Shown here in pieces: positions 1-24,676 of a stretch of DNA of 32,000 nt. This stretch comes from Candidatus Syntropharchaeum caldarium. Its GTDB lineage: Archaea; Halobacteriota; Syntropharchaeia; Syntropharchaeales; Syntropharchaeaceae. How positions within the stretch are numbered: position 1 is the stretch's first letter; each line of letters begins with the position of its first letter. Under the pieces are notes generated by a model that was not told where the DNA came from, made no database searches, and saw only the letters and a list, made by a program, of their open reading frames with translations. Where the stretch lies: the NCBI GenBank assembly GCA_001766815.1, contig LYOS01000002.1, positions 120,001 through 152,000 of the forward strand. The letters run 5' to 3'. Position numbers and translations under genes: made by a program.

Positions 1-1231
<1,231 letters not shown>

Positions 1232-1308
1232 ATAATAAAAAAATAAAATAAAGATCAAACTGCTGATCGGATCGTCGATAAATTATTAGAGCCATTAAGG
1301 CTGGGACG

Positions 1309-1380
1309 GGGCTCGTAGATCAGTGGAAGATCGTCGCCTTTGCGAGGCGAAGGCCCTGGGTTCAAATCCCAGCGAGTCCA
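1309..1380 (+). tRNA. tRNA-Ala (anticodon TGC) in the 16S-23S spacer
   Basis: Hand-folded cloverleaf: acceptor GGGCTCG/CGAGTCC with the G3:U70 alanine identity pair, D stem GATC/GATC, anticodon stem TCGCC/GGCGA with loop TTTGCGA (TGC at 1341-1343), T arm CTGGG-TTCAAAT-CCCAG, discriminator A. CCA is not encoded. Confidence 0.95.
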
Positions 1381-1465
1381 TAGATGCACTCTTGCGCGTA
1401 AGCGTTTGAGGAAGTGTTGATAGCACGCGTGATGCGATGCTAAATGAAACGATCATAAGTTCCAA

Positions 1466-1495
1466 GATCTGGACGCTAACTGGATATAGTGAGGC
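1466..1495 (+). other. 5' strand of the 23S pre-rRNA processing stem (BHB-like motif)
   Basis: 1466-1473 GATCTGGA pairs with 4452-4459 TCCAGATC (8 bp). 1474-1476 CGC pairs with 4446-4448 GCG. 1480-1495 CTGGATATAGTGAGGC pairs with 4430-4445 GCTTTGCTATGTCCAG (16 bp including G-U pairs). This leaves 3-nt bulges TAA (1477-1479) and ATA (4449-4451) on opposite strands. Confidence 0.75.
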
Positions 1496-4429
<2,934 letters not shown>

Positions 4430-4459
4430 GCTTTGCTATGTCCAGGCGATATCCAGATC
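4430..4459 (+). other. 3' strand of the 23S pre-rRNA processing stem
   Basis: Complementary to 1466-1495 (pairs listed for that feature). Its outer helix reaches 4459 and so overlaps the stop codon (4458-4460) of the convergent methyltransferase gene. Confidence 0.75.
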
Positions 4460-5763: not shown

Positions 5764-6675
5764 TTACTCATATTCGATCGTTGCAGGTGGTTTTGGTGTG
5801 ATATCATAAACCACACGTGCTACATCAGGGATCTCGGCTGTTATACGGGATGAGATCCTGCGAAGTCTCTCCCATGGCACCTCGATCGGGCTTGCGGTCA
5901 TTCCATCTCTTGATTCAACCGCTCTGACCGCGATTATCCAGCCATGGACCCTCACATCGCCTTTGACGCCCGTCCCCTTCTCGATAACTGCAGCAAACGC
6001 CTGCCATGGATGAAAGTCATGCAACTCTTCCTCGACGATTGTGTTGGCACGCCTTACAACATCAAGCTTCTCGCGAGTAACTTCCCCAATTATTCTCACG
6101 GCAAGCCCAGGTCCTGGAAACGGCATTCTTTCTGAGATCGATTCTGGCAGTCCAAGTTCACGGGCAAGAATTCTCACCTCATCTTTGTACAGGTCCGCAA
6201 TAGGTTCAACGATCTCCTTGAACTCGATATTTATCGGTAGCCCTCCAACATTATGGTGCGATTTGATACCCCCTTCTGACTCGATCCTGTCTGGGTATAT
6301 CGTTCCCTGAATGAGGTATTCCGCATCAACTTTCTTCGCTTCTTCCTCAAAGACGCGAATAAACGTCTCACCGATGATCTTTCGCTTCTTCTCGGGATCA
6401 GAAACCCCTTTGATCGCATCGATAAAGCGATCCTTTGCATCGACCACCTTAAGGTTCATATCCCCAAAGATCTCCATGATCCGTTCAGGCTCTCCTTCCC
6501 TCATAAAACCTGTATCTACAAAAATTGGTATGAGATTGTCGCCTATCGCACGATGCGCAAGCACAACACAGACCGAGCTGTCGACACCCCCTGAAAGCGC
6601 GATTATAGTCTTATTCTGGCACTTATTCCTGATTTTATCAATAGCATCCGCGATGACTTTCTTATAATCAACCAT
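5764..6675 (-). CDS. guaA: GMP synthase (glutamine-hydrolysing) subunit B, ATP pyrophosphatase subunit
   Basis: 303-aa ORF with PP-loop [10 protein letters not shown] and C-terminal dimerisation/GMP-binding end ...[10 protein letters not shown]. The archaeal split GuaA has this size. Confidence 0.92.
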
Positions 6676-6713
6676 AAAATGAGTTTTCTCGCATCAATTA
6701 AAACTTTTGGTAT

Positions 6714-7745
6714 TCATCCAAAGAACGTCTTAGCAAGATCGAACAAATCGAGATCGACTGTTTTAAGTTTGGCGACCGCATCTTCAAGTTTGACAGGTAA
6801 GATTTTGGAGCCGCGCAGCGCAACCATCTTACCATAGTCCTCGTCTTTCAGGAGTTTGACCGCGGTGATGCCCATTCTTGTTGCAAGAATCCGATCAAAT
6901 GGGGTGGGACTTCCTCCGCGCTGGATATGCCCCAGGATTGTAACGCGGACATCAACGCCCACTCGCTTCTCGATCTCGTCTTTGAGCAGATATCCAATCC
7001 CACCAAGTTTGACGTGTCCATATTCATCGATCTCCTGTTCTGGCATTCTGAAGCCTGTACCCTCTTTTGGTATCGCACCTTCTGCCACAACGACCGTGCT
7101 GTAGGCTTTACCATGATCGTATCGTTGTTTCAGATTTTCACAGATTTCTTCAATGTCAAATGGCACTTCGGGAATCAGGATCTCGTTGGCGCCACCAGCG
7201 ATACCTGCTGCCATAGCGATCCATCCGACATGTCTGCCCATCACCTCGATGATGATCACGCGATGATGTGATTCCGCTGTTGTGTGGAGCCTATCGATGG
7301 CGTCGGTCGCGATTGTAACCGCGGTATCAAACCCAATTGTCTTGCTTGTACAGGATACATCGTTATCTATCGTCTTCGGGATACCAACGACCGGGATACC
7401 TCTCCTGTAGAGAGCCAGAGCGGCACTGAGCGTCCCCTCACCACCACATGCAATAATCCCTGAAATCCCATATTTCTTTATATTATCCCTGAGCCGCTGC
7501 AGATCTTCTATATTTTTGGTAGGGTTCACCCTGGATGTACCGAGTATTGTGCCACCTTTCGACAGTATCCCACTGACAGAATAGTGCGTGAGTGGTTCGA
7601 CATCCCCTTCAATCAAACCTTTCCAGCCATTTCTTATCCCAATAACTTCCCAGTCATAGATGATAGCCTGTTTCACAACTGCTCTGATTGCAGCATTCAG
7701 TCCAGGACAATCTCCCCCGCCGGTTAAAACCCCAATCGTCTTCAT
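6714..7745 (-). CDS. pfk: 6-phosphofructokinase, PfkA family (phosphoryl donor not assignable)
   Basis: 343-aa ORF with MKTIGVLTGGGDCPGLNAAIR, ACGGEGTL, GIPKTIDND and EVMGRHVGW, all PfkA-family motifs. Confidence 0.9.
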   Translation of the reverse strand: MKTIGVLTGGGDCPGLNAAIRAVVKQAIIYDWEVIGIRNGWKGLIEGDVEPLTHYSVSGILSKGGTILGTSRVNPTKNIEDLQRLRDNIKKYGISGIIACGGEGTLSAALALYRRGIPVVGIPKTIDNDVSCTSKTIGFDTAVTIATDAIDRLHTTAESHHRVIIIEVMGRHVGWIAMAAGIAGGANEILIPEVPFDIEEICENLKQRYDHGKAYSTVVVAEGAIPKEGTGFRMPEQEIDEYGHVKLGGIGYLLKDEIEKRVGVDVRVTILGHIQRGGSPTPFDRILATRMGITAVKLLKDEDYGKMVALRGSKILPVKLEDAVAKLKTVDLDLFDLAKTFFG

Positions 7746-7832
7746 AAAGCTCTCCTATTCCTCCATTGCATCGCCATCCTGGAGGTCTCAGATCCTGTAA
7801 TCAGTCCCATGATCTCTTCTCCGGGTATAACG

Positions 7833-8486
7833 TTACTCAAGCACTGCGTGTCTTGCTTTAAGATCTGATTCGCTTGCACCGATCACCGCCATTAGTTCCG
7901 CTATGAGGGCGTCAAGCACAACGAGAGAGAGTGTCTCAAATATCGTGCCAAGCGGTGTGAGCGAACGATATTCACCTTTGAGCTGTCGTTCTATATAGTC
8001 TTCACCACCAACAACTTTCCTGTCAAACCTGCCCTTGACCTCAAGAATAACATCCGAGAGCTTTCCGATTGTGGATGATGAGTTGCTCGTAACCGAGGCG
8101 ATGGCAACCCCTCTCGATTTTGCAATTTTTGCCATGTTTGCGATGTTGAGCGTCTCGCCAGATCCTGTTATTGCGATCACAAGATCTCCTTCTTCAACTG
8201 CAGGTGTCGTGGTCTCGCCAACGACATAGACGACAAATCCAAGATGCATCAACCGCATCGCAAATGCCTTTGCAACAAGTCCAGATCGCCCTGCACCCAT
8301 CAAAAAGATCCTGTTTGCTTCCATAATAGCATCAATCATCGCTCTGACTGCTTTTTCATCGATTGCATCAATCGTTTCTCTTATTTCCTCCTCTATCAAC
8401 TTAATACAGCTCTTAAAACTTGCACAGGTAATTCCATTTACTCGTTTTAAGCCGCCGTTCTTACCATTATTTTTGAGATCTGGCAT
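7833..8486 (-). CDS. hxlB: 6-phospho-3-hexuloisomerase (SIS domain, RuMP pathway)
   Basis: 217-aa ORF with SIS-domain motifs LMGAGRSGLVAKAFAMRLMHLGF and AITGSGET. The size and layout fit PHI. Confidence 0.8.
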   Translation of the reverse strand: MPDLKNNGKNGGLKRVNGITCASFKSCIKLIEEEIRETIDAIDEKAVRAMIDAIMEANRIFLMGAGRSGLVAKAFAMRLMHLGFVVYVVGETTTPAVEEGDLVIAITGSGETLNIANMAKIAKSRGVAIASVTSNSSSTIGKLSDVILEVKGRFDRKVVGGEDYIERQLKGEYRSLTPLGTIFETLSLVVLDALIAELMAVIGASESDLKARHAVLE

Positions 8487-12142: not shown

Positions 12143-12213
12143 TGCGGCAACCGGGATTTGAACCCGGGTTAGAGGCTTGGGAAGCCCCTGTCCTACCGCT
12201 AGACTATTGCCGC
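12143..12213 (-). tRNA. tRNA-Gly (anticodon CCC)
   Basis: Hand fold of the reverse complement: acceptor GCGGCAA/TTGCCGC, D arm GTCT-AGCGGTA-GGAC, anticodon arm GGGGC-TTCCCAA-GCCTC (CCC at 12179-12181), variable TAAC, T arm CCGGG-TTCAAAT-CCCGG, discriminator A. CCA is not encoded. Confidence 0.93.
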
Positions 12214-21831: not shown

Positions 21832-21990
21832 ATGGGTATGAAGGAATTTGAGATCGGACCTATAAGACCACCAGGTGAGGGGGGTAGTTTCTCTCTTCTC
21901 ATAAGAGCGACGAGGAACTGCCCGTGGAGCAGGTGCACGTTCTGCTATGGCACCCTGTACATATCCAGGATGCAGACTCGCTCATCATGA
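21832..21990 (+). pseudogene. 5' remnant (52 codons) of a radical-SAM protein gene, truncated at the cassette boundary
   Basis: Hand translation gives MGMKEFEIGPIRPPGEGGSFSLLIRATRNCPWSRCTFCYGTLYISRMQTRSS*. The IGPIRPP...SLLIRATRNC-x4-C-x2-C block matches my recollection of the N-terminus of a radical-SAM family. After about 21960 the frame runs antisense into the 155-aa gene and stops, and no continuation exists in the window. Confidence 0.55.
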
Positions 21991-22412
21991 AGACCCGGGA
22001 TCTGCGTAACGGTTCTTCTCCCCTTCTCCTCCACTACTTTAAACGCTAACCTTTCATTACCTACCCAGAGCGCAAATTCACAGTTAGGAGAGGCTGCAAC
22101 ATAGCTTTCAAGCTGTTCAATGCCTTCCTTTTTATCTGATGGCTTAACGTCTTCGCTCTTCACCTCGACGTTCATGTAAATGTTTTCCTGTGTGTGCTCC
22201 TCGTCTTCAGAAAAGATCGCAATATCTGCTCGCTTTTTCGCCGTTCCCATCTTGATAGGAAACTCCACGTCGATATCCCGTTTCTCATAGCCATACTCTT
22301 CGATCAAGCTTCTCGCTACATCCTGTCTCACCCTTTCCTCGGGTGTATCCTTTCTGAGCTTTCCTGTGATGAAACACTTTACTTTTCCTGGGGGGATTGG
22401 TTTATCGGGCAT
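21945..22412 (-). CDS. HsdR_N-like (type I restriction enzyme R-subunit N-terminal domain family) PD-(D/E)xK protein, stand-alone
   Basis: 155 aa with TPEERVRQDVARSLIEEYGY, RADIAIF...(17)...NVEVK (D63...E83-x-K85), IEQLESYV and ALWVGNERLAF, which is the HSDR_N pattern. It has its own RBS, GGAGG 8 nt upstream of the ATG. The last ~15 codons overlap the radical-SAM remnant on the other strand. Confidence 0.7.
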   Translation of the reverse strand: MPDKPIPPGKVKCFITGKLRKDTPEERVRQDVARSLIEEYGYEKRDIDVEFPIKMGTAKKRADIAIFSEDEEHTQENIYMNVEVKSEDVKPSDKKEGIEQLESYVAASPNCEFALWVGNERLAFKVVEEKGRRTVTQIPGLHDERVCILDMYRVP

Positions 22413-22474
22413 TTATTTAGCCTCCAGTTGAGGATATGAATGGTGTTGATATGGAAAATGCACGCGAGAGAATA

Positions 22475-24388
22475 TTACTGTGATTCATCGTCTCCCTCCC
22501 TTGAACTTCCATCGATGGTTAAGTAACAATATGCACCCTTCTCCACTTGTACTATGTCAGGACTTTCACTTGTCTTAAAATTTAATTTTTTCAACGTTTC
22601 TTTTAATTGCCTTTCAGAATCACTGTGCGCTCTTTGTCTTTGATCTTTAGCTTCCACCAGTAGAACGCCTAGACTCCCATTTTTAAACCCTAAACCAAAC
22701 CCATCAATATCGGTCAAATGATTTCGTTTGTCATCGTACACCAATATCGATGATAAAGATAGTAACAATTCTGAACGATGACTTAGATTGCCAAGGGAGT
22801 CTTGTAGTGTTTTAAGCTCGTGGGATCTCGAATTGAAAGAATTTAAATCTTTACATATCTTTTTAATTATCTTTGCAGCATTTTTTGAGCCTTTAACTGC
22901 CAACATAAATATCGCAAACAGATTTTCATCTTTAAGCTCAAAAGATAGTTCTTCCTCGGTGATATATCCAAGGATGGAAAGCAATAATTCTTGATATGGT
23001 TTTTGAAACACGTAATCAATAAAAACCTCGGTTTCGGGCACATCATGAACTTCATTTTTTATTTTATCATTTAAATTAATCAAATCTTTCAAAAAATATC
23101 CGAGTATTTCTACATTTTTCTGTATTTGAGATTGCGGATAAAAGGATAATGTAATTGCTATATGTTTCGAGGTGGGCGCTGCTTGTAATGCCAACTGACA
23201 AGAGGTTGTGCCATATTTTTTATTCCATTTTTCTTCGATTTCATACGATAAATTTTTCTTGAATGCATTAGTGAGGAGGGGAAACGGAAGTATTTCAAAC
23301 AAAACATGGATATTAAAAGCCTTCTTCCAATCCTTAGATTGAGGTTGAAAGTCATTATAATCTTTCATTAAGTATCTCTGAAGTCCTGTTATTTTGGTAA
23401 GCTCCTTATCTTTTTTCTCCTTACCAATCAATTGTTCGATTCGTTTTGTATGAAACCCTAACTCCCTCATGGACTTATCGGAATGGTACATATTAATCGA
23501 AAGAAGATCCTCTAAAGAATCAAGTGTTCTGATGATTGGGGTATCATATTCCTTAAATAGGGGTACAATGTGGTCTGGAAAATTTAGGAATATCGTCGAG
23601 AGGTTAAAATCAATTGGAACAGGACCATACTGGGAATCTAAAAAAAGATAAGAAACCTGCCTTATTCTATGAAAAAGATTTTTAAGATTTCTTTGTTTTT
23701 CTTCGTGTTCTTCTGAATCTATAATATAAAAATTTAGCACTTCTTGTAGAAAATCAACAAAATTAGGGATTTTTGAACTATACCTGCGGTATCGCCCAAG
23801 ATGAAAGTAAATGAGAATTTTGTGAAAATTGTATATATCTTCGTTTTCGAGGATTTCTTTGAAATATTCTCTTTGTTTTCTCGCTGGCAATCCTTTTGTG
23901 ATAATCGCTCTCAAATCACTGTGCTTTTGACAATATCTCAAGAGTGCTCTTTCAGTTGCAAATGTACCTGGTAAATGTCCCGCGTTAAATAAAAGTATCC
24001 ATATCTGCAAAATTTCTGCACCAGAAATTTCTTTGCCTAAAATATTAATATTTGAATTTAAACCAAAAAGCCCCTTTACGCTCTTTTCACTCCTTAATTT
24101 ATAGATCAGCTCCAATTGGAGCATCACGTATTCCCAACGCGAGTGGTGTGCGCCTTCATATACACTCCTAATTACCCCTAATTGATCGATTTCCCTCATG
24201 CGATCAATATGGTCATAATTATCAAGAAGATTATAAGTTTCTGTAGCGAGAGGATAAAGTCGAGCAGAGATCTTCCCCAACTGTGGTACGTGGTATTCGA
24301 GGATTTTATTAGTTTCTTCACTCATTTTTTTTACACAGCAAACATTTTTCCAATATCCAAGAGATTTATATCTTAATAATACTATCAT
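22475..24388 (-). CDS. Uncharacterised 637-aa protein: degenerate dGTPase/SAMHD1-like HD region (about res 25-300) plus C-terminal PD-(D/E)xK nuclease-like motif
   Basis: Uninterrupted 1.9-kb ORF whose ATG overlaps the HNH stop (ATGA, 24385-24388). IDRMREIDQLGVIRSVYEGAHHSRWEY and ILLFNAGHLPGTFATE resemble HD-hydrolase motifs with HD replaced by FN. The C-terminus reads TDIDGFGLGFKNGSLGVLLVEAKDQ. The gene is strongly AT-rich compared with its neighbours. Confidence refers to it being a real gene; the function is unknown. Confidence 0.85.
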   Translation of the reverse strand: MIVLLRYKSLGYWKNVCCVKKMSEETNKILEYHVPQLGKISARLYPLATETYNLLDNYDHIDRMREIDQLGVIRSVYEGAHHSRWEYVMLQLELIYKLRSEKSVKGLFGLNSNINILGKEISGAEILQIWILLFNAGHLPGTFATERALLRYCQKHSDLRAIITKGLPARKQREYFKEILENEDIYNFHKILIYFHLGRYRRYSSKIPNFVDFLQEVLNFYIIDSEEHEEKQRNLKNLFHRIRQVSYLFLDSQYGPVPIDFNLSTIFLNFPDHIVPLFKEYDTPIIRTLDSLEDLLSINMYHSDKSMRELGFHTKRIEQLIGKEKKDKELTKITGLQRYLMKDYNDFQPQSKDWKKAFNIHVLFEILPFPLLTNAFKKNLSYEIEEKWNKKYGTTSCQLALQAAPTSKHIAITLSFYPQSQIQKNVEILGYFLKDLINLNDKIKNEVHDVPETEVFIDYVFQKPYQELLLSILGYITEEELSFELKDENLFAIFMLAVKGSKNAAKIIKKICKDLNSFNSRSHELKTLQDSLGNLSHRSELLLSLSSILVYDDKRNHLTDIDGFGLGFKNGSLGVLLVEAKDQRQRAHSDSERQLKETLKKLNFKTSESPDIVQVEKGAYCYLTIDGSSREGDDESQ

Positions 24389-24636
24389 TCGTCTCTGACT
24401 TTTTGCACTTTCTTTGCTATATCGTTCCTCTTACCGCGATTGTAGTTCTTGATCCTATTCCACCTATAATGATCGCTTCTCTTTAACCAGCGAAGCCATT
24501 CCATAAGTGGTTTATCTCCTTTACTTCTGTTACATGCTCGACACGCAGGAATAGTTCTAACACCTCCTTTTGATGCCGCTCTGATGTGCTCATTCTCAAG
24601 GGTTCTGCTACTTCCACAATACATACATTTTTCCAT
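24385..24636 (-). CDS. Small HNH endonuclease (83 aa, zinc-finger type)
   Basis: MEKCMYCGSSRTLENEHIRAASKGGVRTIPACRACNRSKGDKPL contains CxxC...(E)H...GG...CxxCNxxKG, the HNH beta-beta-alpha-Me pattern. GAGGTG lies 5 nt upstream of the ATG. The start is 40 nt downstream of the nrdD stop. Confidence 0.85.
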   Translation of the reverse strand: MEKCMYCGSSRTLENEHIRAASKGGVRTIPACRACNRSKGDKPLMEWLRWLKRSDHYRWNRIKNYNRGKRNDIAKKVQKVRDE

Positions 24637-24676
24637 TAATGCACCTCATTTAACTTCTCAATGCTGTTCTCCTCAC

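Follow-up and report, generated by a model that had tools for sequence, protein, structure and literature searches.

Three unrelated gene pieces in Candidatus Syntropharchaeum caldarium, among them an intact member of an unnamed family that joins a degenerate SAMHD1-like domain to a probable PD-(D/E)xK nuclease domain

We analysed a stretch of 32,000 nucleotides from the archaeon Candidatus Syntropharchaeum caldarium (phylum Halobacteriota; assembly GCA_001766815.1, contig LYOS01000002.1, positions 120,001 to 152,000 of the forward strand), hereafter the window, in which the interval 21945-24636 carries three co-directional open reading frames (ORFs) on the minus strand, coding for 83, 637 and 155 amino acids (aa). 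An initial annotation, made from the letters alone, had read these ORFs as one nuclease-rich cassette, and they do lie at the coordinates that it gave (24385-24636, 22475-24388 and 21945-22412, respectively). As a unit, the cassette did not survive: the comparisons reported here show the interval to be a composite of three unrelated pieces rather than one system, and its only notable element is the large middle gene, an intact member of a widespread and unnamed two-domain family. The three ORFs differ in their guanine and cytosine (GC) content (41.3% in the HNH gene, 34.5% in the large gene and 46.6% in the HSDR_N fragment), and 62 bp separate the large gene from the 155-aa ORF. Inspection of ORFs and profiles detected no methyltransferase, specificity (S) subunit, helicase, integrase or transposase gene within the interval, exactly as had been stated. 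As for the flanks, both described as housekeeping and one of them as a truncated host gene, the upstream one is indeed housekeeping, namely nrdD (TIGR02487, E = 3e-167; GC 50%), with a glutaredoxin-like gene also adjoining, whereas the other (21832-21960) found no match in Pfam, in NCBIfam or by tblastn against plasmids.

The 637-aa ORF codes for a protein identical in sequence to SCAL_000689 of Candidatus Syntrophoarchaeum caldarius. An ATGA at 24385-24388 joins the stop codon of the HNH gene to the first ATG of this frame, and the overlap, which the initial annotation had pointed out, is present in the sequence but is likely to be an artefact of ORF calling. The starts of the homologues correspond to Met22 of the 637-aa ORF; residues 1-25 are disordered (predicted local distance difference test, pLDDT, below 50) in an AlphaFold2 model that otherwise scores well (pLDDT 90.2, predicted template-modelling score 0.88); and the 59 bases at 24326-24384, formally within the ORF, form an AT-rich spacer of 22% GC that holds the TATA-like element TTAAGATATAAAT, to which a promoter role may be ascribed. 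For these reasons, the gene probably starts at Met22 (24325) and thus extends over 22475-24325 on the minus strand, for a length of 616 aa. Translational coupling from the HNH gene to the large gene through the ATGA was considered and found unlikely, given the starts of the homologues and the disordered residues 1-25.

With its low GC content and a GC of 31% at third codon positions, against 47% for the window, the large gene forms a marked GC trough. A word-indexed search returned 57 clusters of homologues, none of them annotated, whose members come from several bacterial phyla and from archaea, methanogens included, and an exhaustive profile search yielded at least 864 clusters at 50% identity (E <= 1e-3), 461 of them with E <= 1e-30. 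Nearly all of these clusters are about 600 aa long and are matched over their full length. Distant relatives, including myxobacterial ones, that tblastn matched in the N-terminal domain only do align to the family model across both domains, and since every distant relative retains both, there is no sign of swappable C-terminal effectors. About 11 polar residues are strongly conserved across very distant members. The large protein itself has no match in Pfam, NCBIfam or PADLOC, the sole hit in PADLOC-DB v2.0.0 being a spurious one to DpdC (E = 0.051 over 28 residues); the earlier statement that no named defence system accounts for the locus therefore holds for the middle gene alone, but the three-gene combination to which it was applied is not a unit. 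Searches of the PDB retrieved no solved structure with this two-domain architecture, and no description of it was found in the literature. Among phages no member of the family was found, and plasmids gave one partial match, on a Peribacillus megaplasmid, where the PGAP (Prokaryotic Genome Annotation Pipeline) annotation reads ‘hypothetical protein’.

The N-terminal domain (approximately residues 26-477; 22958-24313, minus strand) has a fold like that of SAMHD1 and deoxynucleoside triphosphate (dNTP) triphosphohydrolases, according to Foldseek and profile evidence. When the full model was compared with the PDB by Foldseek, the SAMHD1 homologue 9mr6 was retrieved (E = 2.2e-4, probability 1.0, target-normalised template-modelling (TM) score 0.54), and the E. 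faecalis dNTPase EF1143 was significant as well (3irh, E = 1e-3; 4lrl); SAMHD1 and EF1143 were the only significant matches in this database. The family profile run against PDB sequences likewise found 9mr6 (E = 7.9e-6), aligning GASHNRFEH of SAMHD1 with GAHHSRWEY, and motif I (QLG...GA.H.R.E) is visible by sequence profile. Conservation was assessed over 173 full-length members and 18 distant relatives. The first histidine metal ligand is replaced by Tyr87, which is 98% conserved, and the position of the HD dyad is occupied by [L/F/T/S/A]134-Asn135, His-Asp being found in 0 of the 173 full-length members and in 0 of the 18 distant relatives; members with an active HD dyad were thus sought in the whole set and none was encountered, nor does the large protein match the Pfam HD family. 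In the whole family, other residues stand in for three of the four HD metal ligands. The initial annotation had proposed a dGTPase/SAMHD1-like HD fold lacking the HD dyad, a proposal that these results bear out and extend. Residues R84, Y87, G137-H138, T142 and R243 are retained family-wide, and the conservation of H82, N135, D251 and Y301 is confined to the main clade; D251, a tentative candidate for the fourth metal ligand, is replaced by histidine in distant clades. In human SAMHD1 numbering, we take R84 to be R164 and Tyr87 to stand at the position of the metal ligand H167. Because three metal ligands have been lost and strong constraint has nevertheless been kept, the domain appears to bear the signature of a pseudo-enzyme that would still bind something.

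The C-terminal domain (approximately residues 478-631, some 155 residues; 22496-22957, minus strand) was delimited from conservation and from a dedicated domain model. Over the 173 members, E524 is conserved at 98%, D562 at 100%, E579 at 98% and K581 at 99%, and position 560 is a near-invariant [D/E]; these five positions persist in the most distant relatives. The motif D560, D562, E579 and K581 singled out by the initial annotation therefore exists, and its last three residues are 98-100% conserved. In the domain model (pLDDT 90.9), E524 lies on a helix, D562 at the start of a strand and ExK in the next strand, and the secondary-structure string gives an order of helix, strands, helix and strands that fits the alpha-beta-beta-beta-alpha-beta core of PD-(D/E)xK nucleases. 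When 54 diverse C-termini were scanned singly, HamA, Card1_endonuc and Mrr_cat were the only Pfam families matched more than once, all below threshold; single sub-threshold matches concerned Endonuc_Holl, SduA_C and FokI_cleav_dom (E between 0.0025 and 0.06 over the scan), and closer relatives gave a sub-threshold match to NERD. All the Pfam families matched in this way, though sub-threshold, are PD-(D/E)xK families. The C-terminal domain is thus probably a highly divergent PD-(D/E)xK nuclease, as judged from its motif and its modelled topology.

Two loci show family copies in other states. Two paralogues stand in tandem in L070 (L070:4292-6130 and L070:6168-7970), the second without E524, K581 and Y87; from these substitutions, it may be a catalytically dead partner. 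In a Euryarchaeota metagenome-assembled genome, the family member is a pseudogene broken into three ORFs through frameshifts (L011:9995-11863); an intact copy, flanked by the same genes, is found on a metagenomic contig (L048:6001-7856).

To describe the surroundings of the family, we examined the two ORFs on either flank of 32 full-length, non-redundant homologues, 104 ORFs in total. The commonest Pfam families among these neighbours are Eco57I (7), N6_Mtase (6) and HsdM_N (5), followed by HSDR_N, ResIII and AAA_21 (3 each), the HSDR_N domains lying inside full-length HsdR proteins; a PADLOC scan of the neighbours gave the same picture. Genes for restriction–modification (R-M), GmrSD, Mrr, TIR or Dcm-Vsr lie no more than two ORFs or a few kb away in at least 10 of the 32 loci and in L095, and in about one-third of loci the homologue directly adjoins R-M or other defence genes. 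Indeed, type I hsdR/M/S genes are directly adjacent to it in L002, and Mrr together with hsdR/M/S in L003; a PLD-SNF2 helicase and an Eco57I/TaqI_C methylase (L004), Dcm (L007), GmrSD with a 57-aa HsdR remnant (L010) or a 1087-aa type IIG enzyme (L031) stand beside it; HsdM/HsdS are found immediately upstream in L028 and L037, and hsdR-hsdS-x-hsdM directly precedes the homologue in L095. Locus L022 displays a directly adjacent hsdR-S-M, then SLFN/AlbA, HEPN-MNT and DUF87, and L025 displays TIR genes, BrxC/D and Dcm-HATPase-Vsr. In several loci, the homologue is co-directional with its neighbours at gaps of 12-34 bp. On these raw counts, homologues do concentrate beside R-M and other defence genes, as the defence-island check suggested by the initial annotation would have it, and the family is best described as a solitary gene with a defence-island habit, notably beside N6-adenine R-M modules.

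Neither of the two small genes of the interval belongs to this habit. Searches by tblastn with the HNH and 155-aa proteins near the homologues gave 0 matches, first in 19 loci and then in 85 loci in total. The HNH family is absent from the top 25 neighbour families, and no small Cys/His ORF occurs among the 104 flanking ORFs. The claim that the three genes form one nuclease system is not supported by these results.

Several observations on individual loci complete this census. The 57-aa ORF directly 5' of the homologue in L010 (L010:9705-9878) is, by comparison with the HsdR of L002, what is left of the N-terminus of an HsdR, and this locus is another case, like the window, of a decayed R-M gene beside a member of the large-protein family. 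Homologues with 50% and 63% identity to the window protein lie beside gyrB-dnaN-dnaA and gyrA, in or near a replication-origin cluster (L024:2670-7925 and L029:7-1635, respectively). Genes coding for HEAT-repeat proteins of 868-933 aa are directly 5' of the homologue on a Methanosarcina chromosome (L006:6836-9442) and in two unassigned metagenomic contigs, L045 (2856-5657) and L053, and this recurrence may simply reflect synteny. Directly downstream of the P0011 homologue, a 330-aa gene (L097:7008-8000) has a weak Pfam match to dCTP deaminase (DCD); dCTP deaminases are nucleotide-depletion defence genes.

The 83-aa gene (24385-24636, minus strand) is a stand-alone HNH zinc-finger endonuclease gene, an assignment of the initial annotation that passes the Pfam gathering thresholds, with 31.1 bits for HNH_5 (gathering 27.5) and 23.7 bits for HNH (gathering 21.4). 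Its translation displays C4xxC7, H17 and C32xxC35-N36, that is the four cysteines of a zinc finger and a His/Asn core. The gene begins 40 bp past the stop codon of nrdD and is preceded, 5 nt upstream, by a Shine-Dalgarno-like GAGGTG. Its homologues form 34 clusters from archaea and bacteria, with 57-77% identity and nearly all of 82-92 aa (range 67-106). Two contexts of such homologues were examined, one with GAPDH/CetZ and the other with UPF0150 and ParE/SocA toxin–antitoxin genes, and the large-protein family is absent from both. Accordingly, the HNH gene is an independent small gene of mobile type, from a horizontally spread family, and not a conserved partner of the large gene. An imperfect direct repeat of 17 nt (88% identity; 24339-24355 and 24622-24638) brackets it; one copy covers the HNH start codon, and the second precedes Met22 of the large gene by a short distance. 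Similar repeats are common in the AT-rich stretch, and this one may be due to chance.

The 155-aa ORF is itself composite. Its codons 1-141 (21990-22412, minus strand) come, by Pfam and tblastn, from a restriction–methyltransferase gene and hold a complete HSDR_N_2 module (PF13588; 76.7 bits for a cut-off of 25, E = 1.9e-21, residues 24-131) with the motif D63, E83-x-K85; in the alignment, R61 and K85 are invariant, and D63 and E83 nearly so. The best NCBIfam and PADLOC matches are the N-termini of MAD2 and of type I/II methyltransferases. Homologues with 73-79% identity, mostly of 160-270 aa, match only the first approximately 90% of the protein, and in the relatives L086-L089 (74-78% identity) the matching region is the 5' part of a frame of about 600 aa that combines HSDR_N_2 with N6_Mtase and is followed by a Methylase_S gene. 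From this architecture, the intact relatives would belong to the BcgI-like type IIB class. Similarity to the relatives stops at codon 141 (21990-21992); the last 14 codons and the stop (21945-21989) read out across a junction, and these final 14 residues match no homologue. When full-length relatives and the S subunit were searched against the window by tblastn, residues 1-141 alone were recovered, at 22412-21990, and no N6_Mtase or Methylase_S coding sequence was found anywhere in the window. At the sequence level, these comparisons show the ORF to be the surviving 5' end of a nuclease–methyltransferase gene, the rest of which, about 460 codons for the methyltransferase part plus the S-subunit gene, has been deleted. 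The supposed cassette hence lacks a methyltransferase because the deletion removed it together with the S gene. The initial annotation was right about the HSDR_N-type PD-(D/E)xK module and about the GGAGG, located 9 nt upstream of the ATG, but the protein is not the product of a complete gene, consisting as it does of 141 codons of one gene and 14 unrelated ones. A metagenomic copy, 97% identical, shares the aberrant end, and the GC content of the fragment (46.6%) is close to that of the host. A canonical R-M system (type I, IIB or IIG) was also considered for the window and rejected, as it contains no methyltransferase domain or specificity determinant. The original layout was the large gene beside an R-M module, as in many relatives.

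Beyond the junction, a fragment of 43 codons on the opposite strand (21832-21960, plus strand), defined as an ORF only, contains the unusually spaced motif CxxxxCxxC (NCPWSRCTFC), from which it is possibly the 5' end of a truncated gene of Fe-S or radical-SAM type. Since this fragment ends at 21960 and similarity on the other side ends with codon 141, we place the deletion junction within 21961-21989. The frames of about 600 aa in the four relatives (L086:6001-7800, L087, L088 and L089:1119-2921) are each broken by one in-frame stop, which in L086-L088, from different samples, is a TAG at a glutamine codon of the relatives and in L089 a TAA at another position. These stops may represent recurrent nonsense decay, or possibly read-through or recoding.

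At the edges of the island, no mobile-element signature was detected (no integrase, transposase, terminal repeat or target duplication, and short repeats at chance level only). A scan for sigma-70 promoters and terminators, which does not apply to archaea, stayed at background level. Elsewhere in the window, positions 1-4431 hold an archaeal ribosomal RNA operon (16S cut at the window start, transfer RNA (tRNA) gene at 1309-1380, complete 23S at 1496-4431), which explains the high GC content of the first 4.4 kb, and another tRNA gene lies at 12143-12213 on the minus strand.

From these elements, a coherent picture can be proposed. In this alkane-oxidising archaeon, the interval would form a defence islet of small size, decayed in part, in which the HNH gene would be a stand-alone endonuclease gene from a small, horizontally spread family, and the large gene, still intact and low in GC, would have been acquired recently. 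As a defence-type nuclease, the large protein would need no partner. Hydrolysis of dNTPs would be lost from its dead dNTPase domain, in which the retained pocket residues R84, H138, T142, R243 and Y87 would instead bind a nucleotide or nucleic-acid ligand; binding, possibly by driving oligomerisation as nucleotides do in SAMHD1 and in defence dNTPases, would then activate the C-terminal nuclease of PD-(D/E)xK type, with invading or host DNA as its target. A gating role is assigned to the N-terminal domain because the fold and its basic and aromatic pocket residues are kept, the metal site is lost and a probable nuclease is always attached. The large protein is accordingly predicted, from sequence and models, to be a nuclease gated by its N-terminal domain, nuclease activity itself being a prediction. 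Taken as a whole, the reading of the interval as a three-piece islet, with the large protein as a lone defence-type nuclease gated by a non-catalytic nucleotide-binding domain, is one in which we have moderate confidence. A more precise version is much more tentative, and in our opinion unlikely as it stands: the approximately 600-aa family would represent a novel class of immune nuclease made of one protein, whose non-catalytic SAMHD1-type domain senses the nucleotide pool (for example a phage-induced dNTP surge, or non-canonical or modified dNTPs), oligomerises and licenses the highly divergent PD-(D/E)xK nuclease. A prokaryotic lineage would then use the SAMHD1 fold to sense nucleotides instead of depleting them.

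Several points weigh against this picture of a gated, lone defence nuclease. As regards the N-terminal domain, only motif I can be aligned to SAMHD1 by sequence, the correspondence of H138, R243 and D251 with SAMHD1 residues is tentative, and ligand binding by the domain is purely inferred. As regards the C-terminal domain, Foldseek comparison of its model with the PDB and BFVD was not significant (best E = 0.056, TM scores of 0.2-0.36), its profile had no match among PDB sequences, the hhalign comparison with the HSDR_N_2 profile was negative, and the supporting Pfam matches are individually insignificant; the PD-(D/E)xK class put forward by the initial annotation thus has the motif, the topology and recurrent sub-threshold Pfam matches in its favour, but not the fold and profile searches. 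As regards the neighbourhood, approximately two-thirds of loci have no recognisable defence gene in two ORFs per side, and other neighbours include MoxR, DUF58, gyrB-dnaN-dnaA, gyrA, sugar metabolism and HEAT-repeat genes. Lastly, a small HNH gene does occur upstream of a homologue in one other locus, which makes two cases in about 34 loci: the P0008 contig (JGI, Joint Genome Institute, 3300042731) carries an 81-aa HNH gene (6085-6330) approximately 100 bp 5' of a co-directional homologue (6429-8261), and its presence in two independent loci, this contig and the window, seems more than chance. The P0011 locus (L097), which is syntenic with P0008, has neither an HNH gene nor a remnant of one.

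The large protein can be set beside several known systems. SAMHD1-like dNTPases have a defence role in animals and bacteria, their activity being controlled by nucleotides at allosteric sites, and in the defence dNTPases (dGTPase, Clover CloA) the HD motif is strictly conserved and needed for defence (PMC12265719). The large protein resembles SAMHD1, EF1143 and the defence dNTPases in its fold over residues ~26-477 and in motif I. It differs from the latter in that its family has three of the four metal ligands replaced (by Tyr, a hydrophobic or small residue, and Asn), and in that it always carries an additional C-terminal domain of about 155 residues with the E/D/ExK set; with the metal ligands lost, dNTP depletion is therefore not the expected mechanism. 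Another comparison is with Shedu SduA, Hachiman HamA, Card1/Can2 and Cap4, which combine a sensor module with a PD-(D/E)xK nuclease and occur in defence islands. The large protein shares with them a predicted regulatory N-terminal module, a C-terminal nuclease of PD-(D/E)xK type and the association with defence islands, but has no significant sequence or structure match to them; its N-terminal module is a degenerate dNTPase fold rather than a CARF, SAVED or helicase partner, and its gene has no conserved partner. The logic of a sensor followed by a PD-(D/E)xK nuclease is thus already known, whereas the use of a degenerate SAMHD1-type domain as the module before the nuclease appears new. The relatives of the 155-aa ORF, for their part, are like BcgI-like or type IIG-like enzymes in having HSDR_N_2 then N6_Mtase in a frame of about 600 aa and a separate Methylase_S gene, of which the window keeps codons 1-141 only, with no methyltransferase or S gene.

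Among the other explanations, the one that fares best would make the large protein an accessory or back-up module of N6-adenine R-M, either an effector held in check by the R-M complex or a modification-dependent, type IV-like nuclease; in the type IV-like variant, a modified or flipped-out nucleotide would be recognised in the pocket of the dead dNTPase. There are precedents for such arrangements, as the PrrC anticodon nuclease is kept in check by EcoprrI, and Mrr and McrBC sit with R-M loci in the immigration control region of E. coli. Like PrrC (EcoprrI), Mrr, McrBC and GmrSD, the large gene is a solitary one found next to type I R-M operons or as their last gene, but it has no sequence relationship to any of these genes. 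Its closest relatives, P0003 (68%) and P0004 (67%), close hsdR-hsdS-(x)-hsdM operons on the 3' side, in the same direction and with gaps under 80 bp; L028, L037 and L004 are alike, with gaps of 12-28 bp. R-M methyltransferases are the commonest neighbour families, the large gene of the window is 62 bp upstream of an R-M gene remnant, and L010 pairs the homologue with GmrSD and an HsdR remnant. However, R-M genes are missing from the vicinity of many homologues, and those that do adjoin the family are of several types (type I, type IIG, Dcm), as a general clustering in defence islands would explain equally well; the copy in the window is, besides, intact despite its destroyed R-M neighbour. Overall, we regard an R-M accessory as a possible but rather improbable explanation.

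Still less probable is a selfish or addictive role for the large gene, alone or together with the HNH gene, as a mobile element that would bring its host no benefit, spread horizontally and insert at varied sites. Its patchy spread over archaea and several bacterial phyla, its strongly atypical GC content, its location between the normally paired MoxR and DUF58 or beside the essential gyrB/dnaA and gyrA, and the existence of pseudogenised (L011) and degenerate tandem (L070) copies would fit such a gene. These features are, however, also typical of ordinary defence genes; the island edges show none of the mobile-element signatures sought, the family is essentially missing from phages and has one partial plasmid match, and some 11 polar residues show the purifying conservation expected of a cellular function under selection.

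A joint defence or selfish system of the HNH, 637-aa and 155-aa HSDR_N genes has very little credibility left, being largely refuted by the test of conserved linkage that the initial annotation itself proposed. In its favour, the three genes share one direction and follow each other closely, formally overlapping at the ATGA and leaving a gap of only 62 bp, and the P0008 contig repeats the HNH gene upstream in the same orientation; but no relative of the HNH or 155-aa protein lies near the homologues in 85 loci, the HNH gene is absent at the syntenic P0011 locus and its homologues are found in places that lack the large gene, the 155-aa ORF is what remains of a truncated gene, the compositions of the three ORFs differ, and the overlap is probably not at a real start codon. 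As for a housekeeping factor of nucleotide or DNA metabolism (a regulator, or a repair nuclease linked to dNTP supply), the SAMHD1-like fold, the proximity of nrdD and the glutaredoxin-like gene in the window, and the two homologues adjoining gyrase and replication genes hardly make it credible, given the sporadic, non-vertical distribution and foreign composition of the family, its pseudogenes, its variable neighbourhood with an excess of R-M, TIR, GmrSD and toxin–antitoxin genes, and the loss of the dNTPase metal site.

For annotation, this locus calls for caution, as ‘nuclease’ ORFs that lie side by side in a low-GC islet can be the remains of several defence genes with no relation to one another. 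Consisting of one gene of about 600 aa, with some 11 obvious residues to mutate, the family of the large protein is compact and thus easy to test. If the large gene is a working immune nuclease, it would add to prokaryotic immunity a family of at least 864 clusters, archaeal and bacterial, that is invisible to Pfam, NCBIfam and PADLOC. The SAMHD1 fold would also be seen in a new role, a dead dNTPase serving as the regulatory or sensor module of a nuclease. In that case, the family would join the nucleotide-depletion and nucleic-acid-degradation branches of immunity.

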